Shown here one piece after another: positions 1 through 52,063 of a stretch of 64,000 bases of DNA (position 1 is its first letter; the number at the start of each line of letters is the position of its first letter). The translations under genes were made by a program, and so were the position numbers. The notes below the pieces were generated by a model. It did not search any database. It saw nothing but the letters and a program-made list of their open reading frames with translations, and was not told the origin of the DNA. The stretch is from Candidatus Saccharimonadales bacterium. Its GTDB lineage: Bacteria; Patescibacteriota; Saccharimonadia; Saccharimonadales; JACDFO01. Where the stretch lies: contig JBBSLJ010000001.1 in the NCBI GenBank assembly GCA_038255465.1, forward strand, positions 54,274 to 118,273. Reading direction: 5' to 3'.

Positions 1-349
1 GCAAATAACTGCAGGAATATTTACGATTATAATTGCATTAACTATTCTCACTGGTAACCGCAATAGAGCGCACAAACTTACGCAAAGATTCAAAAAAAGA
101 CATAAGCAACATAAGAACTAGTTTTGCTTTATTAGCAATGTTTATGTATAGTACCGTTAAAGGTAAGCGGGACATACAAATGCTAGAGTTCATTGTTCTT
201 GGGCAAATTCCAGGAACGTCATTACAAATTACATTTTTGCAGGTTCTACTTGCATCGACATTATTAGTGACCGTGAGTAACCTGCGCGTAGTCACGCAGC
301 GCAAGCATATGCGGCGGTTTGCTCAGGACCTTGTTCGGCGCGTAACGTT

Positions 350-1792: not shown

Positions 1793-1817
1793 ATGAACTA
1801 GTCTACCACCACTACAT

Positions 1818-3527: not shown

Positions 3528-3608
3528 ATCATTAGTCTACCTAAACCATTACTGATAATAAAACAGGGCTAGTGCAGCCCTGTTTGCTTGGTACTATTCT
3601 AACACTTA

Positions 3609-4676: not shown

Positions 4677-4928
4677 GTTTTTTGATTGAGGCGTGAGCCG
4701 TCGGCTCAGTGTTGCTGTTTGTGTACGAATGCTTGCTCCTATTGGCGTCTAAAACGCCAGAAAGTAATCATGGTTCTTAATTGTTAAATTTGGAGGTAAC
4801 GTTGTCAATTCCCGGGTTTAAATGTAAAAAAGCATGATTACGTGGTAACACTTTTGCATACTGCTTAGGTGTTACTGAGAAATTGTAGCAAAAAAGACTT
4901 AAAAAAACAAGTTTTTATATCTCTGGTG

Positions 4929-4960
4929 ACCCCTGTTAAATATTTTCTTCACCCCTGTTA
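4929..4960 (-). promoter_or_regulatory. Two tandem copies of the CCCCTGTTA(A) motif (4929..4940 GACCCCTGTTAA; 4949..4960 TCACCCCTGTTA) in the mltG/LysM-CHAP intergenic region
   Basis: Direct repeats about 20 bp apart, 260-280 bp upstream of the LysM/CHAP hydrolase start on the minus strand. Confidence 0.4.
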
Positions 4961-31903: not shown

Positions 31904-31922
31904 ATAGTGTAAGATAAGGAAT

Positions 31923-32600
31923 ATGTACAAAGGTGAATATAACCCACCGATTCTAACGGTTGACACTGTTATTCTTCAGTTGATTGACAATGAGTTATTT
32001 GTTTTGTTGATACAACGTCAAAATGAGCCGTTTAAGGGCACATGGGCACTACCGGGCGCTTATAATGCTGCAGGTGAAACAACTAAAGGTGCCATGACTA
32101 GGATGCTAAAAGCTAAGGGCGGAGTCGAGATCAATGATCTTCGACTGGTTGAGCAGCTCTATACTTTTGATACGGTGGCTCGTGATCCGCGCGGCCATGC
32201 TGTTTCAGTCACCTATATGGGGCTTGGTAAGGATATTGTACCGAAAGCCAGCAAAACTACGCAGGATCCGCAGTTCTTCCCTGTTAAGATTCTCCCAAAA
32301 TTAGCCTATGATCATAAAGATATCATTGGCTATGCGCATGAGCGACTGCAATCTAAAGTAACATACACTAACGCGGTTTTTGCCTTGCTTGATCCTTTCT
32401 TTACGTTGTCTCAATTGCAAAGCGCATATGAAGCAATTTTATGTAGAGAACTTGATAAAAGAAACTTCCGTAAAAAGTTTTTAAGCCTTGATCTTATACA
32501 TGCCACTAGTGAGATGCAGCGCGAAGGCGCTCATCGTCCGGCGCGTCTTTATACCTTTAATAGTCACGAGCTAGAAAGTTTGTCTAGGAGTTTTGATTAG
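31923..32600 (+). CDS. nrtR: Nudix-related transcriptional regulator NrtR (Nudix-like ADP-ribose sensing domain plus C-terminal winged helix)
   Basis: 225 aa. The N-terminal Nudix fold lacks the full REx2EE box (ligand-binding rather than catalytic). The C-terminus (SQLQSAYEAILCRELDKRNFRKKF...RPARLYTF) matches the NrtR wHTH pattern. The gene follows nadE with a Shine-Dalgarno sequence. Confidence 0.7.
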   Translation: MYKGEYNPPILTVDTVILQLIDNELFVLLIQRQNEPFKGTWALPGAYNAAGETTKGAMTRMLKAKGGVEINDLRLVEQLYTFDTVARDPRGHAVSVTYMGLGKDIVPKASKTTQDPQFFPVKILPKLAYDHKDIIGYAHERLQSKVTYTNAVFALLDPFFTLSQLQSAYEAILCRELDKRNFRKKFLSLDLIHATSEMQREGAHRPARLYTFNSHELESLSRSFD

Positions 32601-34769: not shown

Positions 34770-36530
34770 ATGGAACTTCATACATCTGGCACCAATCCTG
34801 AACATTTTAATACCCGGAACGTGTCACGACCGGCAAGCGAATTATTGCTTGATTATGAATTGGCACGTACTGCCTGGCCGTATGAGAGTAGCTCTTACCC
34901 GGAATTTTTAACTCAGATCGACGAGCGATCAATGCAATCTGCTCTGATAAATGATGTTATTAGCCAGATTCCTAGCCCCACAATGGCAGTCGATGAGGCT
35001 GTTGAACAAGGTCACGTATCAGAGATGCAAGCAGGTGATTTGTACGACAACCTAGCAGCTGTTTTGGGGAATGACGATTATATGCGCCTTGCGCTGTACC
35101 TGCCGCTTGAACTCTTGCCAGACAGCGGGTGGGTACCCGAGACCAATGATCTTTCGGATGCTATTAATTGCTTTAAACAAAGCTACATGCGTGCGTGGTA
35201 TAGTCTGCTAACAGTTCAAGATGTACGAGCGAATTTTGTCGACGGTGATGTTTTAGAGCCCGAGCTCAGAACCGGCGATCTGCCGAGAGTAATCAAGGCC
35301 GTTCATCTTATTCCTACGTTAGTTGCACGCGGTTTAATTTCGCTCGACCACATACAAGAATTGTTGAGTACTAGCGATGATCCTCTTTTAAAACAAAACC
35401 TTAAGGACATGTTGGACGTCATTGCTGGCACCGAGCAAACCTCTCAGATTGAGCCCCAGCGCCGGTCAGAGGGTGTGATAACCGAAAGAAGACAGGCTTG
35501 GTTGGATCAAAAAACAATAAACGAGGCTATAGAAACACAGTCCGAGCGTTTAATTAGCGAACTAACCGAGCATCCAGACGCTTACGAATCGCTGTCAGGA
35601 CTTTTAACATCCACTAACATGACGTCAGTACTTGTTGGCATTGAGGCAGTGCGCAAGATTGTATTACAGTCTGAAGATCCTTTAAGCAAATATAAGCTAT
35701 ACGAGCCGTTACTGGTTGGATTATGGCAGGCGCCTGATCAAGACATCAAAGAACGATTAACAAAATCATTCCGACATTTTTTTAGGCAAGGCATTATGGA
35801 CAATGAATCAGTAACCTCGCTGGGGGTACAATTACCCAACCCAGCAGGACTATTATCTGAAAACATGCGGCTGATTCCCACAGAAATCGAACAGCTAAAG
35901 AATGTTGCACACCGAATTGAAGCAGACCCTTGGATTTCGCGGTACGTATACCCTGTGATTGCTTTTGGAGGTTCTAAACTAAAAGGCTACGGCGAGGAAA
36001 GTTCTGATATTGATACTTGTATATTCATACGGCCCAACACGGCCGAAGACACAAAAAAGCAGCTTAGATTACGCTTGAAAGCTATTTTTGAAGCAGAGGG
36101 CCAACTTGAGGAACCTATTGAATTTTGGCTAGAGGAAGCGGGCGAACATTTAAGTGTTCGAAGATCAGAAGAGGGCGATTCACATACGGCTGATGCCTAC
36201 TGGACGCACTTACTGTTTAATGCGGCATGGATTGGTTCGCTTGCAAATACCAACACGTTAAGAGAGACCTTACTAAGCAGCTATTTTTATACTACGGAGG
36301 CTCGTGAATTAGATATGAGCGAACGCAAGTTATATCTCGAGCGAATGGAGCAGGATGCGCTGCAATATCGGTTACTCCACAAAGGATATGCAAAGCATTA
36401 TCCACCACATAGTACTAAAGGATTACCGCAGTCAGCCGCGATTGATAGCCAAAGTGTTTTTTGGGATGCTGGCTACCGCCGCCTAGCAACAAAGTTATTT
36501 TTAGAACGCGTATTCCTGCCTAAATTATAG
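34770..36530 (+). CDS. Large hypothetical protein with a Pol-beta-superfamily nucleotidyltransferase motif
   Basis: 586 aa. The motif IAFGGSKLKGYGEESSDIDTCIF ([G/S]-x10-D-x-D) lies about two-thirds into the protein. It is preceded by an AT-rich promoter region and has no other recognisable domain. Confidence 0.55.
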   Translation: MELHTSGTNPEHFNTRNVSRPASELLLDYELARTAWPYESSSYPEFLTQIDERSMQSALINDVISQIPSPTMAVDEAVEQGHVSEMQAGDLYDNLAAVLGNDDYMRLALYLPLELLPDSGWVPETNDLSDAINCFKQSYMRAWYSLLTVQDVRANFVDGDVLEPELRTGDLPRVIKAVHLIPTLVARGLISLDHIQELLSTSDDPLLKQNLKDMLDVIAGTEQTSQIEPQRRSEGVITERRQAWLDQKTINEAIETQSERLISELTEHPDAYESLSGLLTSTNMTSVLVGIEAVRKIVLQSEDPLSKYKLYEPLLVGLWQAPDQDIKERLTKSFRHFFRQGIMDNESVTSLGVQLPNPAGLLSENMRLIPTEIEQLKNVAHRIEADPWISRYVYPVIAFGGSKLKGYGEESSDIDTCIFIRPNTAEDTKKQLRLRLKAIFEAEGQLEEPIEFWLEEAGEHLSVRRSEEGDSHTADAYWTHLLFNAAWIGSLANTNTLRETLLSSYFYTTEARELDMSERKLYLERMEQDALQYRLLHKGYAKHYPPHSTKGLPQSAAIDSQSVFWDAGYRRLATKLFLERVFLPKL

Positions 36531-36654: not shown

Positions 36655-37854
36655 CTAGAGGCGGCTGCCTCCAATGCCCGAGATCTTGCGACCCCCTCCG
36701 CTCAGCTGAGCCCAGTCGATCTGAGCACCGAGCATTTGCAGAGCTCCGAAGTACTGGAGCTCTTCGTTGCCGGCAGGCTGGTCGTCTGCCTGCATCAGAC
36801 CGAGGACGTACCTGGTGAGGTTCGTCTCCAGCCGGGGATAGGTGGCGCTGACGTTGGCACCCAACAGCTTGAGCATCTGCTCGCGGTTGGGCGCACCGAC
36901 TAGCGCCGGAAGGCGCGGGTTTTCCAGCGACTTCTTGATCTCGACCGCCTCATAGGCGAGAGCAGCCGCGATCTGAGCACCAGTGCCGGCGAAGATGCGG
37001 TTGACGGCATCGTTCACGGCACTTGCGTGGTCCCGCAGAACACCCGTTTCGGGTGGCTGCATCATGCCCGGAGGCAAGGCCATACCTCCAGCACCACCCG
37101 ACAGCAACGATGCCATGAGCACCGCCGGGTTGGCGACGCCTTGCATCCAAGCCTCCTGCCACGCCTTCAGCTGGTTGCTGAAGTCCTGGATGGCCGGCCA
37201 CAGCAGGTTGTCGATCCGCTTGAGCAGCTCCTTCTTCCGGCCCTCGGTGACGTAGTTTCCCGTCAACCCAGGGATCGCCGAGAAGATGTCGCCGTAGCTA
37301 CGGCGCGTCAGCTGCTCCCGCAACGGGAAGTAGATCGCCGGATCCACCTGCTCTTCGTTGGTGTCGGCGAACTTCTCCATCAGGGCCACCAGCTTGCCCG
37401 GGATTTCGTACAACCCGACCTGGTATGCCAAGGCCGCCCTGATGGCCGAGATGACGGTCGATTGGTCGACCTTCAGCACACCACCGGTTCGCAGAGCCGA
37501 CAGCCACGAGGCATCATCGGGCACCGACGGCAGGATGTCGAAGGCCGCGGCTCCCAGAGCAGCCGTGTCAGGCACGGGTGCCACCGGGGCGAAAGCAGCG
37601 ACCAGCTTGCGGGCCGGAACCACCTTCATGCCGACCTCGAGCAGGTCCTTCTCGGCCAGCGTGGCCAGGTCGTCCACCGTCGTGACGCCCAGCTCGTCCT
37701 TGATCTTGGCGATGATGTCGAGACCGACACCGTGCTCCAAGAGCCTGGCTGTCACCAGGTCAGGTGCTGTGGTCGCCGAAGCGGCCACGACGGGCGGCGG
37801 GTCAGCAGGAGCTGTGGGCTCCGGCGGAGGGGTTGCAGCAGTGTCATCTGCCAT
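36655..37854 (-). CDS. Hypothetical protein with Pro/Ala-rich N-terminus (last gene of the GC-rich cassette)
   Basis: 399 aa. I chose this frame over the overlapping plus-strand shadow ORFs because its composition is ordinary and it is co-directional with the AdSS-like gene. Confidence 0.5.
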   Translation of the reverse strand: MADDTAATPPPEPTAPADPPPVVAASATTAPDLVTARLLEHGVGLDIIAKIKDELGVTTVDDLATLAEKDLLEVGMKVVPARKLVAAFAPVAPVPDTAALGAAAFDILPSVPDDASWLSALRTGGVLKVDQSTVISAIRAALAYQVGLYEIPGKLVALMEKFADTNEEQVDPAIYFPLREQLTRRSYGDIFSAIPGLTGNYVTEGRKKELLKRIDNLLWPAIQDFSNQLKAWQEAWMQGVANPAVLMASLLSGGAGGMALPPGMMQPPETGVLRDHASAVNDAVNRIFAGTGAQIAAALAYEAVEIKKSLENPRLPALVGAPNREQMLKLLGANVSATYPRLETNLTRYVLGLMQADDQPAGNEELQYFGALQMLGAQIDWAQLSGGGRKISGIGGSRL

Positions 37855-37892
37855 GTTTGTTTCTCAACTTTCTCTCATGTTGGGTGGGATTT

Positions 37893-39275
37893 TCACTTGC
37901 AGAGCTTGTCAAGCTCGGTTGCCCCGAACGAAACCATCCTGGTTGGCACTCCGACCAATTCATCGACTACTCCCGCACAAACGCCGAATAGGCCGTCTTT
38001 GCTTGCGGTAGTAGCGATTGGGATGGATGTGATTTCGGGCTGACAGTCTAGCAGCCTTCGGCCAAGAGCCGTTTGATGCTCAAGGCTTGGGCGCTCATTC
38101 ACCAGGATTTCTCCTGAGGACGAAAAGAATGCGGAGTCATCCGTACCTTCGTACCTGTTGCAGAATTTCCAGATCTCGTTAATTTGGATCTGGTCAAACC
38201 ACGTGATGGCTAAGCCGTCGAACGCACTCGGTCCGCCACATGCCTCAAGAGCATATCGCAGCAGTACGAGGTCAAGCGGACCGACACGAACTTTGCCTTG
38301 GTAACGGTTTTCGTCTTTGTTACTGCCAGGCAGCAGACGTTCCGCTACTCTCGGGTCGGCGGTTGGCATTGGGCCAGCGCCATGCCTGACAGCGTAGGCG
38401 CGGGTTACCCCAATGTTCACTACCTGATCTGCAAAACCGGCGTCCTCGAGCATGCTATGCGTGAAGCGTGGCAGTGTCCGAATAGCGCTGGTATGCGGAT
38501 GAAACCCTATCAAGCGATCCGTGAGCACACCGTGCGACGTTTCCACGACTGCCGCGCCTTCTCTGGAAAGTATTTCATCTCCAAAAAATTCGTGGCCGAC
38601 GATCCTCGCCAGACTGCCCGCTTCATAAAACCGCATGACGACGTAGTCCAAAAACGCGTCGTTGTACAGAAGCTCTATCTCCTCCATAGCCGAATCTTGA
38701 TCGCCGGCAAGAAACTCACCGTCGACTATCGGCTGGAGGTCAGCCCGAATGCGATCACGAACAGTTGCCATCAGCTCTCGCAGATCAGGACGTTTCAAGT
38801 CCTTCGCCTTGATAGCTAACTCCGGCACTCGTCCGTAATCCCGATAGGCCTCACCGACGCCGGTGCCTATCGTCCCTCGCGGATTGTCACCCCTCGCCAT
38901 TTCTTTTAGGCGGGAAGCGATGCCGTGGAAGGGCGTGGCACACAATGCTTCTTCGTCCACCGTCAGTAGACTAAAAACATCATGGATACCATGATGGTAT
39001 CTCAGCGCGTCGGCTTCATTGAGTAATCCCTCCGGAGAGACAATCATCTGCTCCGAAAGGTGCGTTGGTATGCCTTCGAAAGTTCCGCACCCCCATTGGC
39101 TAAAAGCGAACTTCTCGCCTCTGGAAGTATGGACGCCGTGGCTTCCCTGGGCTCCACCTCGTTTGATGACGGTGTGGGCACGCATCATCGTTGCGATTTT
39201 GTGCACCACACCGCCTTTGCCACCGTCACCTGGCCCTAGATCGGTGACAACGTAAACCTTGCTGGTCATCGTCAT
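37893..39275 (-). CDS. Adenylosuccinate synthetase family protein, highly divergent (PurA/PurZ-like)
   Basis: 460 aa. VYVVTDLGPGDGGKGG matches the PurA P-loop GDEGKGK, RGGAQGSHG matches GGHNAGHT, TGVGEAYRDY matches RGIGPAYEDK, and AYAVRHGAGPMPT matches AYSTRVGAGPFPT. Several canonical catalytic residues appear substituted. Confidence 0.75.
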   Translation of the reverse strand: MTMTSKVYVVTDLGPGDGGKGGVVHKIATMMRAHTVIKRGGAQGSHGVHTSRGEKFAFSQWGCGTFEGIPTHLSEQMIVSPEGLLNEADALRYHHGIHDVFSLLTVDEEALCATPFHGIASRLKEMARGDNPRGTIGTGVGEAYRDYGRVPELAIKAKDLKRPDLRELMATVRDRIRADLQPIVDGEFLAGDQDSAMEEIELLYNDAFLDYVVMRFYEAGSLARIVGHEFFGDEILSREGAAVVETSHGVLTDRLIGFHPHTSAIRTLPRFTHSMLEDAGFADQVVNIGVTRAYAVRHGAGPMPTADPRVAERLLPGSNKDENRYQGKVRVGPLDLVLLRYALEACGGPSAFDGLAITWFDQIQINEIWKFCNRYEGTDDSAFFSSSGEILVNERPSLEHQTALGRRLLDCQPEITSIPIATTASKDGLFGVCAGVVDELVGVPTRMVSFGATELDKLCK

Positions 39276-39296
39276 CCCCTCTCTTGGGATAGATGC

Positions 39297-40415
39297 TTAG
39301 AGCCAGGTTGGCCCTTCGCTCGTGTCGAGAACTGGGTCGGTCTCCGCCTGCGCGACCTCGTCCTGGCTGATGGGCCAGAGATCGGTCTTGCTACGGAAGA
39401 GGTCGCCCTTCTGCGGCACGCGGATGTCCTTGCGGAGTGCCGCTTGCGCGCCGATGGGGATGTTGGCCACCGAACGAGCGATGCGCTGGGCATCGGAGGC
39501 ACTGACGTTGTTGGTCGTCAGGAAGTCGATCACCTGGTCCAGGCTGAGCGTGCCCTCGGTGAGGCCGATGATGGTGGCCTGCACCTGCGGCAGCAGCCTG
39601 GTGTCCGGCAACACGATGACGCGGTCACCACCGAACACGTTGGTCCAGAATCTGGACGTTGACGAACTGCTCCCGACTTGCAGGAAGAAGGCATGCGCCC
39701 GCTTCAGCAGGTCAGCAACGACCTCCTTGGTCGTTGGCAAATCGTTGGCGTCGATTTGGAAGCCGTTGGCAGCAACCTTCTCGAACACCTCATTGCCGAA
39801 GACCCGCTTGAGCTGCTTCTCGCTCAACTGATCCCGTGCCGGAGCGTCAGAAATGGTGAAGTCGAAGCCCTTGAGACCAATGCGGTTGATGTACGCATTG
39901 ACGAGGTAGGCGCCGCCGAAGAGTCCGTAGTGCGGATCCTCCTCTACGTCGGCTCCTGCCCGCTCCGGCACCATCAGCGTCAGTTGCTCGACGATCTTCT
40001 CGGCGAGCATCTCGAATTGCGGCCGACAGAGCACGAAGCGGTCTCGGACGTCACCGAATATGCCGGTGGCCATGTGCAGGTCGTAGCCCGGAAGCACGCC
40101 GCTGCAGAGGTCGTAGGCATCCGGCAAAACACCGATTGCCACATCGACGTTGCCTCCCATGCTGCCGGTGGTGTCCAAACGCGTCTCAACCGGCATGGAA
40201 GTGCCGATTGTCAGCTCGTACAGCCCGTTCGGGAGCTGCTCAAAGCGCAGACGCGACGGACGGACAACGCCGTACTCCGCCGGGTCAACCAGCGGGTTCA
40301 GCTTGCCCGTATCGCGAGCCTTCTGCTCGGCTGCCCGGGTCGCAGGACCGCTAGGCGGTACGTACGCTCTAGATGCCGAGGCATAGGACGCCCTTGTAAA
40401 AGTATCTCTTCCCAT
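39297..40415 (-). CDS. Hypothetical protein with a possible vWA/MIDAS-like DxTGSM motif
   Basis: 372 aa. RLDTTGSMGG resembles the vWA MIDAS DxSGSM motif. The rest is unrecognised, so the assignment is tentative. Confidence 0.45.
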   Translation of the reverse strand: MGRDTFTRASYASASRAYVPPSGPATRAAEQKARDTGKLNPLVDPAEYGVVRPSRLRFEQLPNGLYELTIGTSMPVETRLDTTGSMGGNVDVAIGVLPDAYDLCSGVLPGYDLHMATGIFGDVRDRFVLCRPQFEMLAEKIVEQLTLMVPERAGADVEEDPHYGLFGGAYLVNAYINRIGLKGFDFTISDAPARDQLSEKQLKRVFGNEVFEKVAANGFQIDANDLPTTKEVVADLLKRAHAFFLQVGSSSSTSRFWTNVFGGDRVIVLPDTRLLPQVQATIIGLTEGTLSLDQVIDFLTTNNVSASDAQRIARSVANIPIGAQAALRKDIRVPQKGDLFRSKTDLWPISQDEVAQAETDPVLDTSEGPTWL

Positions 40416-40441
40416 TGTCTGCTGTCCTTTGTTCGGGCCGC

Positions 40442-41254
40442 TTACAGCGGCAGGGTGGTGAATTCAACAAACGTACGCCCCCAGAGCTCTTCGACCAGTT
40501 CATAGAACTGCGCGTGAGCTCTATCAGCCTTGTGTTCACGACGACTTGCCAGGCGCCAAAGGCACTCGACATATCGACCGAACTCCTCACTGTCGTATGG
40601 ATAATTGCCAGTGATAGGATCTCCACCAATGGCAGCAAACACTGCTTTTGCAGCGCCTGCGATATCATCCTTGCGAATTTCCACCGGTATCCCCGTCTGG
40701 TGCATCTGTGCAGACGACCAGTCAAAGACAACGGCGAAATGCTGTTGCGGTTCAAGCAGGATGTTGGCCGCCGTGAGCGAACCAACAGCGATGCCGTCAC
40801 CGTGAGCGAGACCTAGCAGCTTAAGAAGCCTGCCCATAATCCAGGCGCTAGACCTGAGATCAACACGCAGATGGTCTTTGGCCACTAGGTTACTGAGCGG
40901 CACCATCTGCTTTACATCGTCCACTTCCGTGAAAGCCAGGATGTTAACCCGACGGCCACCTTGGTCTTCAGCGATGAAGCCGTCTACCATGAGGGGAAAC
41001 AAACGATCATAGCTAAGCAACCTACCCGAACCGGTCTTAGCGTATTCCGCTTCGAACAGATCGGCTGTTTGCTTCAGTTCCTTCAGGACATACGTAGCCC
41101 TTTCGAGACTGCCGTTGTGTGCTACGCCTGACACGATCTGCAACAGATACGGCTTGTCGTTGTCCACCTCTTGACAGAGATAAACCCGATACAAGTCTGT
41201 TTCTGCGACTTTCGCGCCAACACGATATTTGCACGTACCACTCTCGACGATCAC
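40442..41254 (-). CDS. Small-molecule kinase-like protein (APH / fructosamine-kinase-like phosphotransferase fold); first gene of the cassette
   Basis: 270 aa. HGDGIAVGSLTAANILLEP is a Brenner-type HGDxxxxN catalytic loop, and FAVVFDWSSA is a D(F/W)x metal-binding motif. Confidence 0.6.
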   Translation of the reverse strand: MIVESGTCKYRVGAKVAETDLYRVYLCQEVDNDKPYLLQIVSGVAHNGSLERATYVLKELKQTADLFEAEYAKTGSGRLLSYDRLFPLMVDGFIAEDQGGRRVNILAFTEVDDVKQMVPLSNLVAKDHLRVDLRSSAWIMGRLLKLLGLAHGDGIAVGSLTAANILLEPQQHFAVVFDWSSAQMHQTGIPVEIRKDDIAGAAKAVFAAIGGDPITGNYPYDSEEFGRYVECLWRLASRREHKADRAHAQFYELVEELWGRTFVEFTTLPL

Positions 41255-41456: not shown

Positions 41457-41559
41457 GCACGAGCATTTATCACTATCATTTCATTGCGTAATCGCATTCG
41501 GTTAAAATTGCGATCACCCAATCTTATGACCACATTGATATTTAATCTGCCCACTATGT

Positions 41560-43809
41560 ATGGTCTCATTTGCTTTAAAATCAAATTTTAATTACCATAA
41601 GCGGATGGATACTAGTGAGCTCTTAGGAGCCGCAGCGTTGGCTGAGCCGGCACAAAAAAAACATGAATTTGAAGAAATCACAGAGTCCCAGCCTGCTTCT
41701 ACTATTGACCGATTGCAACAATTAGAAGTATTAAAAGAAGTTGCAGATGTTATGCGAGAAGATCCTGCTGTTTCTTCTATGTTTGATGTTGTACGTCAAA
41801 CTCCTGATATTTTTACTGAAATCCAACCCGTTTTATCTCGTGATAAAGAATTTGACTCGGCAGCCTTACCTGGCGAGCTACACCGTACTTTTACTCCCTT
41901 ATTTGCCGGGATTAGCATGTCGCGTCGCGGAAGCACCCTACTTGAGCTTGCCATCGACAGACACACCGACTGTGAGGCTGAGCAGCTTTGGGGTTTAATT
42001 ATCAAAGGAGAGGCGTACACTTCCGAGCTTGTTGTTGGATCGGGAGTTCATGCAGCTATTTATAATTCAGAGCGCATGACGGCTGATCCAAAAGTGCCGG
42101 CACTTACAATTGACGGTGGTGCCAGCGCGGGCGGACAATTTGCGGGTCCAGAGGGACCAGTCTGGTTTTTGAACACACGTACCAGGCCTGAGGATCCCGA
42201 CGCACCTAATGTCCCGGGGGGCAAGGGCAGCTTGAATACACTAGAGCGTGGCGTTCTTCAACAGTCTGATATCAGCGGATCATCATATGCCTCTCAAGAT
42301 ACATTAGCCCTACCAACGCAAGTCAATCATCTTTTATATAGTAAAGTGCTCAATAGAACGGAAGTTGTTCGTGTTGAGGAAAACAATAGCGATGAAAGCG
42401 GCCGACCAGGATTATACAAAGTGACCTTGAGGTGCGGAGAGCTAGAAGAAGCAACAGTTACTACTGACAGACTAGTTTTTGCGAGTGGTCTTGGTGACCC
42501 AGTTACTGGTTTTGAAAACAGTGACCAAGATACGCAGGATATTATTGAGGAAGAAAAAGCAAAATTTAAACGCGGCGAAGATGCCCAGATCATGACATTC
42601 GAACAATTTGCCGAACGTGTCGGTGACGAAAGCGACCCATTCCCGCTAAGACCCTTTGGGTGGGTGGCAGTAATCGGCCCGGGCGACGGCGGAGCTGTTG
42701 CCGCCGAATACCTATTGGGTAGTGGGCCATCGACACGCATGTCTTCTACCCAGCTTGATCAGGTTCAAGAAGTATTTTGGATCGGCCAAAAAGCCGAAAC
42801 TCGCGAAGAATATATGCAATCAAGCCGGCAGCGTTATCGTAATCTCGGCCTTGAATTCCCAGTTGATACCAAAAGCGGCTATGCTCACCGGCTCACACCT
42901 ATACCAACTCGAGCCTATAAAATTGAGCGAACCGAAGATGGCCGCATCAAGATACTCCATGGGAGGCGTGAAACTGACGGGACTATTACCCACGTTGATG
43001 ATGTCGTGGTTGATCATGTAGTTCTTGCAACTGGTTTCAAAAAAAAGACAGAGAAAATTTGCAGTTCTGTTCTTAAGCCCGACCATGAGGGCAAGGTTGA
43101 CGAATTTGTAACGGTAGATGACGGCTGGGCAATTGCTAGAAGATATTCAGGAACTCAAATATACATTGTTGGGCCGGCAGCCGAATTACCTGTTAGCCGC
43201 CAAGATAGAGATACTTCTCCAGCCATGAAAAGGGGGAAGGTCATATCGAAAACGGTGGCCGTATGGGCTAGCGCAGAGGAAACGGCAGCGGCAGCTAGAT
43301 TGCTTAGCTCACAGAAGCCAGACGGAGAGCGCCCGGCTAGTCTAACTACTAAGCAAACTGCTAAGGTTGAGCCCGTTGAACTCCCGCCAATAGACCTATC
43401 GAATAATCAACAAGGGTCACAAATGGTGGCTGAGGTTGCAAAAGAAAAAATTCATAGTCTTTTGCCACACGATGCCAATTCAGAAGACATTACCCGATTA
43501 GCAGTTGGAACTGCATTACATAGGTACGTTTTCCCTGAGTCATTAGATAGTATACGTTTAACTATCCAAAGGATAAGCGAATCTGAAAACGGCTGGCGTT
43601 TTGATGTTAAGACAAATGTCGGCTTTCCGCAGTCTCCAGAATATATACGCCTTATGGACGACCTTATAGGCGAGCCTCTGTTGCAATCCGTTCTAGTAAG
43701 GCTAACTGAGCGGTCCGTCCACTCTTCTCAGACCGCAGTTTTAGACATCCCCTTATCCATGAGAAAAGTCTCTATAGGTGAAGTTGAGATTCGCGTCAAA
43801 CGCCGCTAG
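41560..43809 (+). CDS. Flavin-dependent (class B, N-hydroxylating/FMO-like) monooxygenase-like protein with N- and C-terminal extensions
   Basis: 749 aa. Two dinucleotide-binding motifs (LVVGSGVHAAIYN; VAVIGPGDGGAVAAEYLL) and a late VLATGF (ATG motif). About 130 aa at the N-terminus and about 190 aa at the C-terminus are unassigned. Confidence 0.55.
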   Translation: MVSFALKSNFNYHKRMDTSELLGAAALAEPAQKKHEFEEITESQPASTIDRLQQLEVLKEVADVMREDPAVSSMFDVVRQTPDIFTEIQPVLSRDKEFDSAALPGELHRTFTPLFAGISMSRRGSTLLELAIDRHTDCEAEQLWGLIIKGEAYTSELVVGSGVHAAIYNSERMTADPKVPALTIDGGASAGGQFAGPEGPVWFLNTRTRPEDPDAPNVPGGKGSLNTLERGVLQQSDISGSSYASQDTLALPTQVNHLLYSKVLNRTEVVRVEENNSDESGRPGLYKVTLRCGELEEATVTTDRLVFASGLGDPVTGFENSDQDTQDIIEEEKAKFKRGEDAQIMTFEQFAERVGDESDPFPLRPFGWVAVIGPGDGGAVAAEYLLGSGPSTRMSSTQLDQVQEVFWIGQKAETREEYMQSSRQRYRNLGLEFPVDTKSGYAHRLTPIPTRAYKIERTEDGRIKILHGRRETDGTITHVDDVVVDHVVLATGFKKKTEKICSSVLKPDHEGKVDEFVTVDDGWAIARRYSGTQIYIVGPAAELPVSRQDRDTSPAMKRGKVISKTVAVWASAEETAAAARLLSSQKPDGERPASLTTKQTAKVEPVELPPIDLSNNQQGSQMVAEVAKEKIHSLLPHDANSEDITRLAVGTALHRYVFPESLDSIRLTIQRISESENGWRFDVKTNVGFPQSPEYIRLMDDLIGEPLLQSVLVRLTERSVHSSQTAVLDIPLSMRKVSIGEVEIRVKRR

Positions 43810-44864
43810 GCGGTCGGTTTTAGTAGAGAAAACTGGCGGGAGATGTTACGCAAATCGTTTATGTCTCGCAGTTGCTCAATATCGCTCGGTTCTTTAAGGT
43901 CAGTAAGTGGGTATAGGGCATTCATGCCCGCAACGATTGACGCGATACTGTCCGTGTCACCGCCAAGCTCTACGGCTTGCCAAACGTTTTCCGGGAAACT
44001 GGCTTTCAGTACAAAAGCGCCGTAGGCCCGTCCGAGTGTACCGATTGAATCAAACCCGCCCTTCGGATTATGTCGAATCACCTCCCGAGCATCAAGTACG
44101 CCGAAATTAGACTTGAGTGCCATCCTGCCAAGACGCCTGCTGAGTATTGGTTCTTTCAGGGTTTGATCCATGCCGACATAGGCGTATTCAGCCATTTTGG
44201 CTATCTCAACCGCAGCATCAAGTAGCATTTGCCTAGAGTTAGCATCACCCTCGAGTAACCACCCTAGTACATCGTGGTGTACTCGGGCTGTCATGGCAGA
44301 AAAAGCATTGTCATGTGTCATACGAGCAAACTGCTCAACTACTTTGTCGCTCTCTGCAGAAGGCAAATTGCTAACTGCATGAAAGTACGCCAGTGGTGCT
44401 AGTTTCATAAGAACACCATTACCTAAACCGCCTTCTTCCCCGGACTCGCTCCAATGCCTGCCGCTAGCCAACCGCTCCATACTGCGAATTGTGCTGCGGC
44501 CAAAGCCAAATTTCTGTGGACCAAACGCCTCTGCATACCGTCCATAGGCAGTAATATGTTCGACAGCGACCGCATCCAATACATCCCCGCCATGTTTTTG
44601 GGTTTGAATAATTGCTTTGGTAACTGCCAGTGACAAAATCGTGTCATCGCTCCATCCACCCGTAGGTTGCCTGTCTATATATGGGTTCTTGGTAGTTGGT
44701 TGCAGGCTGTGAGGATCTTCGCCATTCGCGACCCGTTCACGCATGTGCTCAGCAATTGCCCCGGCTTTCATTGTTTCATATGGCAACCCAGCACTATCGC
44801 CGTAAGCTATCCACGGCAACAACCGCTCACCACATTCTTGTAGTGCGGCTTCCTCTTTGATCAT
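43806..44864 (-). CDS. ADP-ribosylglycohydrolase family protein
   Basis: 352 aa. The N-terminal YGDSAGLPYE matches the ARH/DraG GDALGxPxE motif. Confidence 0.8.
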   Translation of the reverse strand: MIKEEAALQECGERLLPWIAYGDSAGLPYETMKAGAIAEHMRERVANGEDPHSLQPTTKNPYIDRQPTGGWSDDTILSLAVTKAIIQTQKHGGDVLDAVAVEHITAYGRYAEAFGPQKFGFGRSTIRSMERLASGRHWSESGEEGGLGNGVLMKLAPLAYFHAVSNLPSAESDKVVEQFARMTHDNAFSAMTARVHHDVLGWLLEGDANSRQMLLDAAVEIAKMAEYAYVGMDQTLKEPILSRRLGRMALKSNFGVLDAREVIRHNPKGGFDSIGTLGRAYGAFVLKASFPENVWQAVELGGDTDSIASIVAGMNALYPLTDLKEPSDIEQLRDINDLRNISRQFSLLKPTA

Positions 44865-45679
44865 AATTGTCTCTCTTGTTCCAATAGTGGCGGAATACTA
44901 TCCGCAAAAGTCAGCAACGCTTCGTCGCTGTAGCGCTTACGTTCAATATGCACCCATTCTCCATTATTCCAGGATTTTGTTTCATCCCACGGGCTGATTG
45001 ATCGTCGCCATTCAATTCTAGGCCCCATTTTTCCTGTCTCCGGATTGACACGTGAATAATGCATGATCTGGCAGTTCCATATTTTATAATCATCGTCATT
45101 TTCCTGAGCCAGCCATTCGAATGTATCAAGACCCTCAAGCACGTACTTGGCCGCATTTATAAAGTCACCGTGGGTAACTGCAATAACGCTTTGGCCATCG
45201 CATTCACGGTGCAAGGTATTTTGAATACGCTCATAACGTAACCGCACGCCGCTAGCCAGTGACTCGCCGCCTGGCGGACACCAGTACCAGTAATTTTGAC
45301 CCTTGAGTTTATGGCTATGTTTAAATTGCTGCAAGCGTTCTTCATCGTTCAAAAGCCCGTACTCACCCCAGTCACGCTCACGCCACAAATCCTCTTTTTT
45401 CCAGCGACCTCCAAGCCCGAGTAAACCTGCAGTCTTTATGGTGCGGATTAAAGGAGATGTAAAATAGTGGTCAAAGCCTTCGGGAAACTCCCGTCGCAAC
45501 CATTCACCAGCCGACTGGGCCTGCTCTACTCCCTGTGGTGCTAACACCATTTCGCTGTCGTGACGATCGTGGAAACCATCCGGAATTTCAAAACCAGGCG
45601 CCTTTTTTACGCGCGCTTGAATCTCATTTGCTTCAGACCGACCATGGCGCACCATCACTAGATCTCTTGGCATCCCCAT
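44861..45679 (-). CDS. Histidine phosphatase superfamily protein (phosphoglycerate-mutase-like)
   Basis: LVMVRHGRSEAN is the RHG catalytic motif. I propose the start at the ATG at 45679, preceded by AAGGAG at the right spacing. The ORF track extends to a TTG at 45742, which I consider less likely. Confidence 0.7.
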   Translation of the reverse strand: MGMPRDLVMVRHGRSEANEIQARVKKAPGFEIPDGFHDRHDSEMVLAPQGVEQAQSAGEWLRREFPEGFDHYFTSPLIRTIKTAGLLGLGGRWKKEDLWRERDWGEYGLLNDEERLQQFKHSHKLKGQNYWYWCPPGGESLASGVRLRYERIQNTLHRECDGQSVIAVTHGDFINAAKYVLEGLDTFEWLAQENDDDYKIWNCQIMHYSRVNPETGKMGPRIEWRRSISPWDETKSWNNGEWVHIERKRYSDEALLTFADSIPPLLEQERQL

Positions 45680-45748
45680 ATATATCTCCTTTGTATATAT
45701 TGAAACATTTACTGCTAATAAAACCATGTGCAGTATTAGCAAGCTATA

Positions 45749-45769
45749 TTAGTGTTGACAATACACTAA
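45749..45769. promoter_or_regulatory. Candidate NrtR operator: perfect 21-bp palindrome TTAGTGT-tgacaat-ACACTAA
   Basis: It lies in the divergent region between the histidine phosphatase (-) and pncA (+), about 67 bp upstream of pncA. The arms match the nadD/nadE site at 29912..29932. Confidence 0.5.
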
Positions 45770-45835
45770 GTATCATCTACTATCCATTATACACAGTAAG
45801 TGTGTATACAACAATAAGTAGTAGAGGAGTAGATT

Positions 45836-46555
45836 ATGAAAAACGTAGAGACATTCGACGAAGTCATAGCAATTAACGTAGATGTACAGAACGACTTTTG
45901 TCCTGGCGGTGCTCTGGCGGTGGCAGAAGGCGATATGGTAGTAGAACCATTAAACAAGGTTAATGACTGGGTACGTGACCAGGACGGTAAAGTCATCTTC
46001 ACGGGCGACTGGCACCCGCGTGAAACTGCCCACTTTGCAAACAATGGCGGCCCCTGGCCTGCCCATTGTGTCCGTTATACGGCTGGCGCAGCTTTTCACG
46101 ACGACTTAAAAGTAACTGACAACGACACCGTGGCGCTAAAAGGCACTGGTACTAAAGACGATGGTTATTCTGGCTGGTTTGCCGCCTTTGGCGCTGAAAG
46201 TCCTATATATCGGACATATACCGAGAAGGATGACGGCGTTAGCAGTGTCCAGGCCGCAATATTAGAAGCCGTCTGGTTGTATAAAGAAAATCAAAGGAAA
46301 GTTGCAGTTGTAATAGGCGGCTTAGCCACCGATTATTGCGTTAAAGCCACCGTGCTAGACGCCCTAAAAGGTGCCAAGAGTGCAGAGCGCTATGCCGCAA
46401 AAATCGGTATTTTTGTCCTTGAGGACGCTATCCGTGCAGTTGATGTAAATCCTGGAGACGGCGACCGTGCAGTCGATGAAATGAAAGCCGCCGGAGCAGT
46501 CTTTACCACAGCCGAAGAGTTATTAAGCGGCAAATTATTTGAAGTTACGGCGTAA
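45836..46555 (+). CDS. pncA: Nicotinamidase (isochorismatase family)
   Basis: 239 aa. Starts with VDVQNDFCPGGALAV (Asp-Lys-Cys triad family) and has a Shine-Dalgarno sequence upstream. Confidence 0.8.
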   Translation: MKNVETFDEVIAINVDVQNDFCPGGALAVAEGDMVVEPLNKVNDWVRDQDGKVIFTGDWHPRETAHFANNGGPWPAHCVRYTAGAAFHDDLKVTDNDTVALKGTGTKDDGYSGWFAAFGAESPIYRTYTEKDDGVSSVQAAILEAVWLYKENQRKVAVVIGGLATDYCVKATVLDALKGAKSAERYAAKIGIFVLEDAIRAVDVNPGDGDRAVDEMKAAGAVFTTAEELLSGKLFEVTA

Positions 46556-47831
46556 GGATCAAACCATGGAACAATCACCACTTCCCTACGGCCCCGAGCT
46601 AGAAAGAACATACATTACCGCCGGACTCGACTACTACAAGCCGACCATGAGCCAGCTTGCGTACGAGAATGAACCAAATGCCGAAGTAACATTCACCTTC
46701 AAAAATCGCGGCGATCAACGGCTGGCCGATTACATTGATCCGATAGCTTTGCAAGAGCGTTTTGACAGCATTCGCGAACAAGGCTTTAATGCCGAAGAAC
46801 TGGATTACTTAGCTGGCATCCTAAACAGTCGGGGCGATCGTACATTTAGCGACGAATATCTTGAACACTTGCGCAGCGGCCAGTTACCGGCTGTTGACGT
46901 TACCCTGGGTAACGACGATATCGCTATTGAAACAACTGGTGGCTGGAGCCTGGTTAGCTTTTGGGAAACAGTCATAATGAGCGAAGTAAACGAGGCGTAC
47001 TTTGAAGGCTACGTACGAGCGCAAGGGCTCGACATCTTTGAAGTTTACAATGAGGGTGACCGCCGGCTTAGCGAAAAAATCAAAACACTAAAAGCCAATC
47101 CAGACATTAAAATCGTGGACTTTGGTACTAGGCGGCATTTTAGCCAACGCTGGCAGAGTCATGTTGTGAATCGCTTGCTAGCTGAATGCCCAGATAATGT
47201 AATCGGCACAAGCAATGTTGCCTTGGCACAGGCAAACAATATCAAACCGGTTGGCACATTTGCCCATGAAATGCCCATGACGTATGCAGGTCTTGCCGAT
47301 GCACGAGGCCAAGATATAAAAGAATCACACAACCGCTTTATTGGTGACTGGTTTGCGCGCTACGGCGACGACCTGTCTACGGCGCTAACCGACACCTTTG
47401 GTAGTGATTTCTTCTTTAGCGATTTTACGCTTGAGCAGGCCACAAAATGGCGTGCTCTGCGTCATGATTCAGGTGATCCGGTTGAATTCGGCGAAAAAGC
47501 TTTGGCTTTTTATGAAGCCAACGGAATTGATCCAAAAACAAAAACCATCGTTTTTAGTGACGGCTTGGATATTAATGAAATCGTAAGACTGCATGACAAA
47601 TTTAGCGATCGAATCAATGTTACGTTTGGCTGGGGCACTACGCTTACAAACGATCTTGGGCCTAAATCCCTTAATATAGTCATGAAAGCCACTCACGTTG
47701 AGGATACGACTACTGGCCAGGAAGCAGATGAAGTAAAATTAAGCGACAACGCCGGCAAACACACTGGTCCAGAAATCAAAGTAAACGAATACGAATTAAT
47801 CTTTGGTGCAAAGGATTTGGCAGTTTGCTAA
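46539..47831 (+). CDS. pncB: Nicotinate phosphoribosyltransferase
   Basis: 430 aa. N-terminal TAGLDYYKPTMSQLAY and NAPRTase-family length. It overlaps the pncA stop. Confidence 0.85.
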   Translation: MKLRRKDQTMEQSPLPYGPELERTYITAGLDYYKPTMSQLAYENEPNAEVTFTFKNRGDQRLADYIDPIALQERFDSIREQGFNAEELDYLAGILNSRGDRTFSDEYLEHLRSGQLPAVDVTLGNDDIAIETTGGWSLVSFWETVIMSEVNEAYFEGYVRAQGLDIFEVYNEGDRRLSEKIKTLKANPDIKIVDFGTRRHFSQRWQSHVVNRLLAECPDNVIGTSNVALAQANNIKPVGTFAHEMPMTYAGLADARGQDIKESHNRFIGDWFARYGDDLSTALTDTFGSDFFFSDFTLEQATKWRALRHDSGDPVEFGEKALAFYEANGIDPKTKTIVFSDGLDINEIVRLHDKFSDRINVTFGWGTTLTNDLGPKSLNIVMKATHVEDTTTGQEADEVKLSDNAGKHTGPEIKVNEYELIFGAKDLAVC

Positions 47832-47873
47832 TCTTAGCAGTAAAGTCAGAAGATATTATGGAGATTACGCAAG

Positions 47874-48617
47874 ATGGGAACTAGTCAAACCGAGCTGTTC
47901 AAACAGGATGCGCTACAGTGCATGCGCGGTTCATTAGCGCAACAAAACTACCCCGGCTATCCCAACCAATCAGAAAGACTACATGGTGATGTCACAAATC
48001 TTGATATTCCAGATCAGTGGCCATTGCACCCATGGATTACTGATATGCTCGATGACCCTGAGATCGGTGCTGTAACTGGCCGGCGATTTTATAGGAATTT
48101 CGGAGCAAATTATACTGCCGATCCAATTATAGTCCGCCGTGATATGAGCAAACCGCATGTGCTGCTTATTGAGCGCGGTGACACAGGTTGTCTGGCACTG
48201 CCGGGTGGGTTTATCGAGCCGGATGAAGATCCCGCCACGGCCGCCAGACGTGAAGCCAAAGAAGAGACTGGTATTGATTTGCTACGGCTCATACATACGA
48301 TCAAGCCCGTATATAGCGGTCCAGTTGCTGATATTAGACTAACAGCCAACGCCTGGCCCGAAACATTTGCGTTCTGCTTTGAACTACAACTTGACACAAA
48401 TGAAGAGCAAAAAACACTAACAGAAATGATGTCGCGAAACCGTTTTGACAAAGTCATCAGGTCAGCGGGCCGTGCTGCCTCTATTAATTATTTGCAGAAC
48501 AGAGGATGGCAAGGCACTGACGACGCCAAAACGGCTGGATGGTTTCCAGCCGATAAAGTTAACAATAGGCTGTTCGGTTCCCATAAAGCCCTGGTTGAAC
48601 TGGCTATGAAAGGCTAG
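47874..48617 (+). CDS. NUDIX hydrolase (probable ADP-ribose/NAD-related pyrophosphatase) with an N-terminal extra domain
   Basis: 247 aa. Complete Nudix box LPGGFIEPDEDPATAARREAKEETGI. Confidence 0.8.
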   Translation: MGTSQTELFKQDALQCMRGSLAQQNYPGYPNQSERLHGDVTNLDIPDQWPLHPWITDMLDDPEIGAVTGRRFYRNFGANYTADPIIVRRDMSKPHVLLIERGDTGCLALPGGFIEPDEDPATAARREAKEETGIDLLRLIHTIKPVYSGPVADIRLTANAWPETFAFCFELQLDTNEEQKTLTEMMSRNRFDKVIRSAGRAASINYLQNRGWQGTDDAKTAGWFPADKVNNRLFGSHKALVELAMKG

Positions 48618-50624: not shown

Positions 50625-51365
50625 ATGCAACTGACGGAAGAAGCAGTAGCCAACGCCATTATCTGGAGCGCCGACGTCGATACCACCGAAACCTTGCTGG
50701 CTCAGGTAGAGAAGATGCCTAGGCTTTCGATCGTCAAAATCGACCGCCTGTTCGTGGCAAAGAACGGCTACGACATCTTCGACGCCCTTCGTGAGCGAGA
50801 CAAGCACGTCTTCTACGACGCCAAGATCGTCGAAATCCCAAGCAAAAGCGAGGCGCTGGCCATAGCCGAGTGCCGGCATCAGCCCTGGATGCTCAACTGC
50901 ATGGCCGGAATTGTGTCTGGTGGTGATTTTAGCCACGACGACCCCGATAAAATCGAAGCGCTGATGCGTTTTGCTGATGCCTGCCTCAGCGCAGACGTCC
51001 GTCCCTGTGCCGTGACGGTACTCACAAGCAAAAAGCCAGAGCTGGTCACCGAGGAATTCGGCCGCAGTGCCATCGATCAGGTGCTGTACTACGTCGAGCT
51101 CCTGGTGACTGCCGGTTTCACAGATGTCGTCTGCTCGCCAGCAGAGATCGAAGCCATCCGCTCGCGGTTCGAAGTCGACCTCGACATCAACACGCCCGGC
51201 TTGCGCCGCAATTCATCTGACACCGGCGACCAAGCCCGCGTCGCTACGCTTGGCTCGGCTCTTCGTTCTGGTGCCACTCGTGGCGTCATTGGTCGTGACC
51301 TGACCAAAGGCAACCCCGCTCAGAACTTTGACGACATCGTCGCCGAAGCCGTCGCCGAAGTCTGA
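50625..51365 (+). CDS. pyrF: Orotidine 5-prime-phosphate decarboxylase
   Basis: 246 aa. VKIDRLFVAKNG, VFYDAKIVEIPSK (matching the DxKxxDIP motif) and the C-terminal GRDLTKGNP. Confidence 0.7.
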   Translation: MQLTEEAVANAIIWSADVDTTETLLAQVEKMPRLSIVKIDRLFVAKNGYDIFDALRERDKHVFYDAKIVEIPSKSEALAIAECRHQPWMLNCMAGIVSGGDFSHDDPDKIEALMRFADACLSADVRPCAVTVLTSKKPELVTEEFGRSAIDQVLYYVELLVTAGFTDVVCSPAEIEAIRSRFEVDLDINTPGLRRNSSDTGDQARVATLGSALRSGATRGVIGRDLTKGNPAQNFDDIVAEAVAEV

Positions 51366-51394
51366 TCCCCAGACCGACAATCCGAAAGGACGTT

Positions 51395-52063
51395 ATGACA
51401 ACGCTCGAAGGAAAGAAGGAGTTGGTTGCCGATTTGCTTTATGCGCTCGGCGCCATCCAGATCGACACTGAAGTCGGATTCCGGCTCAAGTTGCACGAAA
51501 GGCTGCCCAGCGCACCGCTTTCGCCGATCTATCTGAACCTGAGGACACCGGATCATTCTAAGAACCCGGGACCTCTGACGCCAGAGATCATGCAACTCAT
51601 CGCAGAGTTGATGGATGAGATGTCGCTCGGTCTGGGCAAAGAGTGCTTTACCGGCATCCCGGAAGCTGGCGAGCCTTTTGCGGACTATTTCGAGAAGATC
51701 GTCGGCGCAAGCCGCCTCCGCCTGCAGAAGGTAGAAAAAAACGGCAAGCGCTGGATCGACGATCATTTCACAGGCGATTTCGAGCCGGGCGACCGCTGCA
51801 TCATCATCGACGACCTCATCACGCAGGCCGATAGCAAGCTGGAGGCCATCCGTGCTTTGACACACTCGACGCTCCAAATATCCGGAGTGCTAGTCGTTGT
51901 CGACCGTATGCAGGGAGGTCGTCAGCAGCTTATGGCAGCGGGTCACCGGCTATTCGCCATTTTCACGCTGCACGAACTGCTCAGCCATTACGCCCGGAAG
52001 GGCTACATCGATCAGTCGCAGGCCGAGACAGTGCTGAAGTACATCGCGGTCAACCAGGCCTGA
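51395..52063 (+). CDS. Orotate phosphoribosyltransferase-like protein with a non-canonical PRPP loop
   Basis: 222 aa. The OPRT-like N-terminus (LGAIQID...GFRLKLH...SPIYLNLR) is present. The PRPP motif reads CIIIDDLITQADS where VEDVITTGGS is expected. The C-terminal VVVDRMQGG is present. Confidence 0.6.
   Translation: MTTLEGKKELVADLLYALGAIQIDTEVGFRLKLHERLPSAPLSPIYLNLRTPDHSKNPGPLTPEIMQLIAELMDEMSLGLGKECFTGIPEAGEPFADYFEKIVGASRLRLQKVEKNGKRWIDDHFTGDFEPGDRCIIIDDLITQADSKLEAIRALTHSTLQISGVLVVVDRMQGGRQQLMAAGHRLFAIFTLHELLSHYARKGYIDQSQAETVLKYIAVNQA

Follow-up and report, generated by a model that had tools for sequence, protein, structure and literature searches.

A putative class B-type flavin monooxygenase from a Saccharimonadales genome and its relatives in uncultured phages

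Background

In the window analysed here, a stretch of 64,000 nucleotides from a Candidatus Saccharimonadales bacterium (contig JBBSLJ010000001.1, positions 54,274 to 118,273), a 749-aa open reading frame (ORF) at 41560-43809 on the + strand raises two questions: what kind of flavoenzyme does it encode, and does this enzyme work with its neighbours? A sequence-only reading had described the product, hereafter the target, as a protein resembling class B or N-hydroxylating flavin monooxygenases, and had seen a biosynthetic pairing with an adjacent cassette that encodes an adenylosuccinate synthetase (AdSS)-like ligase. Among class B flavin monooxygenases, the siderophore, xenobiotic and Baeyer-Villiger enzymes have been studied in depth. 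Our analysis indicates that the target is, very probably, a genuine flavin-monooxygenase-type enzyme that uses FAD and NAD(P)H. Its gene belongs to the native, accessory part of a Saccharimonadales-like (Patescibacteria) genome, is distributed sporadically and does not form part of the cassette.

Results

Cofactor motifs and conserved core

An identical gene model for 41560-43809 is found in the public assembly of the same contig, and ORF calling and motif mapping recovered the 749-aa frame with the three motifs that the sequence-only reading had picked out: GSGVHA (residues 160-165), GPGDGG (373-378) and D485-x3-LATGF (485-493). Two GxGxx[GA] matches by themselves are weak evidence and not significant, the shuffled target having a mean of 0.58 such matches and the Poisson chance of at least two being about 0.11. 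The glycine motifs were taken as real because they are conserved across the family and placed at Rossmann turns in the AlphaFold2 (AF2) model. Conservation was counted over 158 sequences, namely the best 150 representatives and the close homologues: G160 is kept in 151 of them, G162 in 152, G373 in 154, D376 in 148, D485 in 144 and G492 in 151. As a whole, the cofactor motifs and about 30 further positions are kept in at least 80%, and mostly at least 90%, of these divergent sequences. The gene and the features of its core are as follows.

41560-43809, + strand: whole ORF, 749 aa, ATG start; GC 0.471 and GC at third codon positions (GC3) 0.389, like the genome backbone
42016-42117, + strand: residues 153-186, FAD-type beta-alpha-beta unit, with GSGVHA at nt 42037-42054
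42481-42495, + strand: residues 308-312, ASGLG, first ATG-like crossover, where the chain passes from the FAD into the NAD(P)H domain; G310 in 157/158 and G312 in 145/158
42661-42789, + strand: residues 368-410, NAD(P)H-type beta-alpha-beta unit, with GPGDGG at nt 42676-42693 and its D376
42826-42837, + strand: residues 423-426, RQRY, after the second Rossmann unit; R423 in 150/158, R425 in 144/158 and Y426 in 155/158
43012-43038, + strand: residues 485-493, DHVVLATGF, ATG motif leading back to the FAD domain
43159-43314, + strand: residues 534-585, last FAD-domain strand IYIVGP and closing core helix; G538 in 152/158 and A579 in 132/158

The second strand of the FAD unit ends in the acidic residue D186 (E or D in 12/12 homologues), and the unit, this terminal residue and the GG doublet (G191-G192) align with canonical FAD binders. 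The FAD fingerprint that marks class B enzymes, i.e. GxGxxG/A, an acidic residue at the end of beta2 and GG, is therefore present as a whole, with conservation in 151-152 of the 158 sequences. The second GxGxxG/A and the ATG motifs of that class are also present: ASGLG was aligned with VVLATGL of MbtG, and DHVVLATGF (LATGF, 489-493) with the ATGY motifs of MbtG, SMFMO and PvdA, which bears out the earlier naming of VLATGF as the ATG motif. Concerning the NAD(P)H unit, a conserved insert (G387, S395, L399, D400) separates the helix from beta2, which ends in W407-x-G409-Q410. The RQRY segment provides candidate contacts for the NADPH phosphate.

Predicted fold and nearest solved relatives

The AF2 model of the target has a predicted local distance difference test (pLDDT) of 74.7 and a predicted template modelling score (pTM) of 0.75, with an input alignment of 12 sequences. 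The core begins with the FAD beta-alpha-beta unit, goes on through a beta-meander to the ASGLG crossover and the NAD(P)H beta-alpha-beta unit, and continues with another beta-meander, the LATGF crossover, the final FAD strand IYIVGP and the closing helix, which is the order expected of a two-dinucleotide-binding flavoprotein. Both glycine motifs fall at beta1-alphaA turns (strand 153-159, helix 163-175, strand 182-184 for the first; strand 368-372, helix 375-386, strand 404-408 for the second). The proposed FAD and NAD(P)H dinucleotide-binding motifs thus lie inside Rossmann folds, in agreement with their conservation across the family, and the best homologues are not the unrelated structural or surface proteins that would have spoken for another assignment.

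The topology of the model and the Foldseek matches (E values of about 5e-11 to 3e-10) agree with the class B architecture, in which one polypeptide carries separate FAD and NAD(P)H Rossmann domains. The four best Foldseek matches in the PDB are all N-hydroxylating monooxygenases (NMOs), i.e. PvdA (3s61, 4.6e-11), KtzI (4tlx, 5.4e-11), putrescine N-hydroxylase (7us3, 6.9e-11) and DfoA (5o8p, 2.8e-10), with target TM-scores of 0.52-0.57. Since AIF, dihydrolipoyl dehydrogenase and thioredoxin reductase have Foldseek E values within about one order of magnitude of the NMOs, fold alone cannot separate a monooxygenase from an electron-transfer oxidoreductase.

Sequence profiles separate the two better than the fold does. 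A profile built from 30 distant core-only relatives and searched against the PDB matched MbtG (4.9e-10), SMFMO (4a9w, 3.5e-8), PvdA (8.2e-6), KtzI (6.7e-5), NbtG (8.5e-5) and PAMO (3.2e-4), while glutathione reductase, thioredoxin reductase and AhpF were reached at about 1e-3 and FSP1 at about 2e-2. In these alignments, the ATG-like, GxGDSG and ATG motifs of the family fall residue for residue on their monooxygenase counterparts. The FAD and NAD(P)H Rossmann domains of the target are joined by two ATG-type crossovers, and its nearest solved relatives, by fold as by profile, are class B monooxygenases, the N-hydroxylating ones first, in line with the class B assignment of the sequence-only reading.

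A family-specific loop after the GG motif

42130-42288, + strand: residues 191-243, GG motif (GGQFA) and family-specific loop, the most conserved stretch of the protein

The loop has the signature GGxFA…(F/W)xLN(S/T)R(N/T)RP…PG…G.LN…Q.xD…Y, and each of the residues N205, R207, R209, P219, G220, N226, D237 and Y243 is kept in 137-154 of the 158 family sequences. No PDB sequence match goes beyond about the N of LN in the LNSRNRP motif. In the AF2 model the loop is poorly resolved, residues 192-233 and 238-246 having a pLDDT below 50. We infer that the loop is part of the active site, and its two near-invariant arginines suggest an anionic group on the substrate, e.g. a phosphate or a carboxylate.

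Subclass assignment and library searches

Against Pfam, the target gave a single sub-threshold match, to Pyr_redox_2 (E 0.0034, 17.3 bits, cutoff 26.1), and against NCBIfam, PADLOC and PHROGs no match. Neither the target sequence nor its 12-member profile found anything significant among PDB sequences. Weak Pfam matches in the relatives went to Pyr_redox_2 (23/30), Lys_Orn_oxgnase (PF13434; 13/30) and Pyr_redox_3 (3/30); the gathering threshold of PF13434 was not reached, and the target itself has no match to it at E<=0.1. No match to a Pfam model of the flavin-containing monooxygenase (FMO) type was found for the target or for the 30 relatives scanned.

The fingerprint of FMOs and Baeyer-Villiger monooxygenases (BVMOs), FxGxxxHxxx[YFW] between the Rossmann motifs, occurs in 0/158 family members; NMOs are not known to carry it either. 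At the position of the NMO ATG motif the target reads DHVVLATGFKKKTE, which departs from the full motif D-x3-(L/F)-ATGY-x4-(H/P). This full motif was found in 3/158 members and its relaxed core, D-x3-[LFC]-[ACST]-TG-[YF], in 33/158. As for disulfide reductases, redox-active cysteine pairs are rare or missing in the family (CxxC in 0/158, CxxxxC in 3/158), and the three cysteines of the target (C138, C292, C501) are scattered. A disulfide reductase was rejected for want of a cysteine pair, and strict membership in the FMOs or BVMOs for want of the fingerprint. The stricter form of the earlier assignment, i.e. membership in the FMO, BVMO or NMO subclass proper, did not hold; judged on these motifs, the target appears to behave as a class B-like flavoenzyme, yet it cannot be filed as NMO, FMO, BVMO or disulfide reductase.

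With the NMOs (PvdA, KtzI, MbtG, NbtG, DfoA and putrescine N-hydroxylase), which are its best matches by fold and the best profile matches of its family, the target shares the two-Rossmann FAD/NADPH architecture and both ATG crossovers. It differs from them by the conserved Asn/Arg loop of about 50 residues after GG, by additional N- and C-terminal domains, by the incomplete ATG motif and by the absence of siderophore or nonribosomal peptide synthetase genes from all cellular and phage-type contexts examined. The NAD(P)H motif of the family is GxGDSG, whereas that of NMO-type enzymes is GxGxS/QxA. SMFMO (4a9w/4c5o; Pyr_redox_3), the second-best profile match, aligns in the ATG region, GxG[ND]SG and the second ATG; it is a protein of 357 aa with no extra domains and without the family loop, and its Pfam family is touched weakly by only three of the 30 relatives. 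In PAMO, the FAD beta-alpha-beta unit and the GG motif align with the family. There is also a resemblance between the segment GGxWxWNRYPG…D…Y of the BVMOs and GGxFA…LNSRNRP…D…Y of the family, and between the terminal GPxxP of the former and VGPxAxLP of the latter; the BVMOs and FMOs (PAMO, CHMO, mFMO) are set apart by their defining fingerprint, missing in 158/158 family members, and no sequence match runs through the loop. Finally, pyridine nucleotide-disulfide oxidoreductases and AIF/NDH-2-type reductases have the same overall fold, and Pyr_redox_2 is matched weakly, but the family has no cysteine pair and its profile matches to them are about six orders weaker than to the NMOs.

Terminal regions and start codon

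41255-41559, no strand: 305-bp spacer common to the target and a divergent 270-aa ORF, with promoter-like sites at consensus level only
41560-41694, + strand: residues 1-45, unconserved, pLDDT <50, probably disordered
41695-42009, + strand: residues 46-150, helical N-terminal region, with arginines conserved among close homologues
43408-43806, + strand: residues 617-749, alpha+beta C-terminal domain; pLDDT 84.8 when modelled separately

Extra regions of about 130 aa at the N-terminus and 190 aa at the C-terminus had been proposed. Both exist, with other lengths: about 150 aa precede the first Rossmann strand, and the flavoprotein core ends at about residue 585, followed by a linker and then the alpha+beta domain (~617-749). 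In the N-terminal region, R79, R94 and R109 are invariant and R66 and R123 nearly invariant among close homologues, and the segment from about residue 100-140 on (profile coordinates) is also matched in many phage-type relatives. The C-terminal domain is present in 88 of the 157 top family representatives and missing from the phage-type short forms. Foldseek gave no PDB match for it at E<=1e-3, the best weak matches being the N-terminal domain of AsfvPrimPol (E 8e-3, TM 0.39), followed by MHC-platform and parvovirus NS1/Rep origin-binding folds. Outside the family the domain was not detected, a profile search of a 5.8-billion-protein set yielding one fragment only. The cellular forms have the N-terminal helices and the C-terminal domain as add-ons, which presumably select substrate or partner.

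The true start codon of the target is uncertain, because no obvious Shine-Dalgarno sequence precedes ATG 41560 (41530-41610 inspected), an alternative in-frame ATG (Met15) is found at 41602, and residues 1-45 are unconserved and disordered; the conclusions are unaffected.

Family size and distribution

A word-indexed search found only 12 close full-length relatives, 33-60% identical and located on Patescibacteria-type contigs. An exhaustive profile search returned 942 cluster representatives at E<=1e-3, 480 of them at E<=1e-30. The target is a member of this large uncurated family, whose defining mark is the Asn/Arg-rich loop after GG. Among the 157 best-scoring sequences, the C-terminal domain occurs in 88 and both flanks in 82, while about 50 are core-only forms, mostly of 380-560 aa. 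The N-terminal extensions of family members (up to about 790 aa) had no Pfam match in the examples scanned.

The core-only forms examined sit in phage genomes. On three Logan contigs, the core-only form is surrounded by long runs of small co-directional ORFs, together with genes for a phage zinc-binding domain, phage lysozyme, SNF2, PDDEXK and AAA_25. Further loci are provided by 19 IMG/VR viral contigs of 5-135 kb and 36 soil or rhizosphere metagenome loci, and in two loci (L014 and L025) a portal protein is encoded 0.3-5 kb from the short flavoenzyme gene. The GC content of the phage-type contigs is mostly 59-72%, with a minority at 45-54%. The family has no match among the PHROGs and PADLOC models, tblastn of a phage-type member found none in 50,697 GenBank phage records, and no real relative is present among the BFVD viral structures. 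Given its absence from PHROGs, the GenBank phage records and BFVD, uncultured phages are the only phages in which the family is known.

The three-part forms come from cellular genomes. They occur in a Saccharimonadales metagenome-assembled genome (MAG), other Patescibacteria MAGs, Patescibacteria-type metagenome contigs and at least one other bacterium, and they are surrounded by ribosomal-protein, tRNA-synthetase, ParAB and ECF-sigma genes. No conserved neighbour of the family was found in the cellular or phage loci examined. Clustering of the ORFs around 19, then 37, phage or metagenome loci gave no conserved partner: once the copies of one phage were set aside, even the most frequent neighbour families were present at no more than five loci each.

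A PF00004-type AAA ATPase of about 470-530 aa is one of the few neighbours whose recurrence is not due to copies of one phage; its gene lies 0.1-4 kb from that of the short flavoenzyme at five phage loci, on four distinct contigs (L013 7351-8772, L021 11273-12874, L022 5265-6818, L023 13416-14870 and L064 11416-12870). L023 and L064 are one 45,381-bp contig, and the L013 copy, which was scanned, corresponds to phrog_10440, of unknown function. Ro60/TROVE-like RNA-binding proteins (phrog_850) are encoded on two unrelated viral contigs, within about 5-8 kb of the short flavoenzyme (L014 3349-5118, 4e-89; L022 18790-20472, 2e-73). The 126-kb phage-like contig of L013 has two extremely long ORFs at 1-5535, a few kb from the short flavoenzyme: one of 2223 aa, the other of 1396 aa and with a NUDIX domain. 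A literature search on phage flavin monooxygenases, anti-defence monooxygenases, Patescibacteria FMOs and Saccharibacteria adenylosuccinate synthetase retrieved nothing relevant.

Genomic neighbourhood in the window

The cassette (36655-41254, - strand) consists of four co-directional ORFs coding for proteins of 399 aa, 460 aa (AdSS-like), 372 aa and 270 aa. As had been noted, the target is transcribed divergently from it, the 270-aa ORF (40442-41254) lying on the opposite strand beyond the 305-bp spacer. Only two features could be recognised: the AdSS-like protein is a real but divergent member of Adenylsucc_synt (9.3e-32), and the 399-aa protein has a SAM-like motif. No cassette protein has a PADLOC match, and the 372-aa protein has none among GenBank phages. 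The cassette genes have a GC of 0.53-0.65 and GC3 values of 0.80, 0.58, 0.79 and 0.57, whereas the target has 0.39 and the backbone 0.38-0.49. Because of this difference in GC3 from the target, the cassette looks like a horizontally acquired element that arrived later beside a resident gene.

Between the OTCase gene and the GC-rich cassette lies a 586-aa ORF (34770-36530, + strand) of native composition (GC3 0.42), with a weak nucleotidyltransferase match near its C-terminus (NTP_transf_2, E 3.6e-4). Neighbourhood conservation was checked in 70 loci (822 kb) carrying relatives of the target, and neither the four cassette genes nor the 586-aa ORF had a homologue in any of them.

Two coincidences between Saccharimonadales-type genomes probably reflect plain synteny: the target in the window and its homologue in L009 are both followed downstream by a His_Phos_1 gene, and an OTCase gene adjoins the homologue in L002 and lies 7.5 kb from the target in the window. 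NAD-related genes are found on both sides of the target, at 29996-32600 and 43806-48617; the set comprises NadE, an NrtR-like Nudix regulator, an ADP-ribosylglycohydrolase, His_Phos_1, an isochorismatase-family (PncA-like) protein, NAPRTase (PncB) and a second Nudix protein. The ADP-ribosylglycohydrolase gene is convergent with the target, their ends overlapping by 4 nt, and an 823-aa homologue (P0010) adjoins a CTP_transf_like (NMNAT-type) gene (L033 2860-4023). This neighbourhood may be a functional hint or a coincidence, and it stays a mere lead since other homologues have no such neighbours. A second compositionally foreign pair, of 246-aa and 222-aa ORFs, was found at 50625-52063 (+ strand; GC 0.57-0.58, GC3 0.69-0.72).

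Discussion

The explanation that we hold to be the most probable, with modest confidence, is a stand-alone, single-polypeptide class B-type flavin monooxygenase. In such an enzyme, NAD(P)H would reduce the bound FAD, O2 would react with the reduced FAD to give a C4a-(hydro)peroxyflavin, and one oxygen atom would pass to a nucleophilic heteroatom, most likely an amine nitrogen, on an anionic substrate. Several results weigh against it: the AF2 model is built on an alignment of only 12 sequences; structures of AIF, dihydrolipoyl dehydrogenase and thioredoxin reductase score close to those of the NMOs; the only Pfam match is below threshold, and the target and its own profile find nothing significant in the PDB; the FMO/BVMO fingerprint is missing and the full NMO motif rare; the most conserved loop (192-246), the presumed active-site loop, is modelled with low confidence; and gene context gives no clue to the substrate.

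The same near-equality of fold scores also favours a FAD-dependent NAD(P)H:acceptor oxidoreductase (AIF/NDH-2/FSP1-like) or an NAD(P)H oxidase, passing electrons to a quinone, O2 or another acceptor with no insertion of oxygen. Pyr_redox_2 being the commonest weak Pfam match of the relatives and the sole one of the target, the presence of FSP1/AIFM2 and NADH oxidase among the weak profile matches and the missing subclass fingerprints point in the same direction. However, the best profile-to-PDB matches are all class B monooxygenases (MbtG at 4.9e-10 vs. about 1e-3 for reductases and 2e-2 for FSP1), the four best Foldseek matches are NMOs, and the last FAD-domain strand ends in GP, whereas reductase families have a GD motif at this point. 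We therefore consider an acceptor oxidoreductase rather unlikely, though it is the most serious competitor of the monooxygenase. A flavoenzyme acting on a macromolecule, nucleic acid or protein, with the Arg-rich N-terminal helices and the C-terminal domain as binding modules, would account for the conserved arginines, for the nucleic-acid-handling folds (AsfvPrimPol, NS1/Rep) among the weak matches of that domain and for the location of phage copies among DNA-metabolism or early genes (SNF2, PDDEXK, AAA_25, helicase). It is improbable, given that no fold match of the C-terminal domain reaches E<=1e-3 and that the phage forms lack this domain and keep only a part of the N-terminal helices; we know of no class B flavoenzyme that acts on nucleic acids.

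Two further explanations are very improbable. One of them is a scaffold without catalytic activity in which nothing but the fold has been retained, to which the lack of a family match above threshold and the poorly modelled active-site loop might point; conservation of all cofactor motifs and about 30 positions across divergent sequences is not expected of a pseudoenzyme. The other is a tailoring oxygenase for a small-molecule pathway encoded with the cassette, as the sequence-only reading had pictured it. The target does adjoin and diverge from the 270-aa, 372-aa, AdSS-like and 399-aa genes, and the AdSS-like protein is a genuine member of its family; but the cassette genes and the 586-aa ORF have no homologue in the 70 related loci, close homologues of the target (38-60% identity) occur in unrelated contexts, and the composition of the cassette is foreign (GC3 0.57-0.80). 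A cassette tailoring enzyme was rejected on co-occurrence and composition, and the biosynthetic pairing is largely refuted.

Taken as a class B-type monooxygenase, the target may be viewed more broadly, in a reading that we regard as doubtful. A new class B-like clade would then exist as a lone core-only gene in soil phages and, with targeting domains added, in episymbiotic Patescibacteria, both oxygenating a host-derived anionic small molecule as a means of host takeover or counter-defence, not of biosynthesis. In this reading, the molecule, e.g. a nucleotide signal (immune or NAD-derived) or a polyamine, would be inactivated or converted.

For the window, the analysis tells a resident gene apart from a horizontally acquired cassette and removes the tempting interpretation as a biosynthetic cluster. 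The enzyme class is familiar; the size of the clade, its signature loop and its distribution in phages and Patescibacteria were unexpected. It appears to form a sizeable sister group of the class B monooxygenases with no covering model in Pfam, NCBIfam, PHROGs or PADLOC, a family with its own near-invariant Asn/Arg loop that is split between uncultured phages and cellular genomes, including those of the ultra-small Patescibacteria. Carried alone by many unrelated phages, a single-component oxygenase may well have an auxiliary activity or one that manipulates the host.

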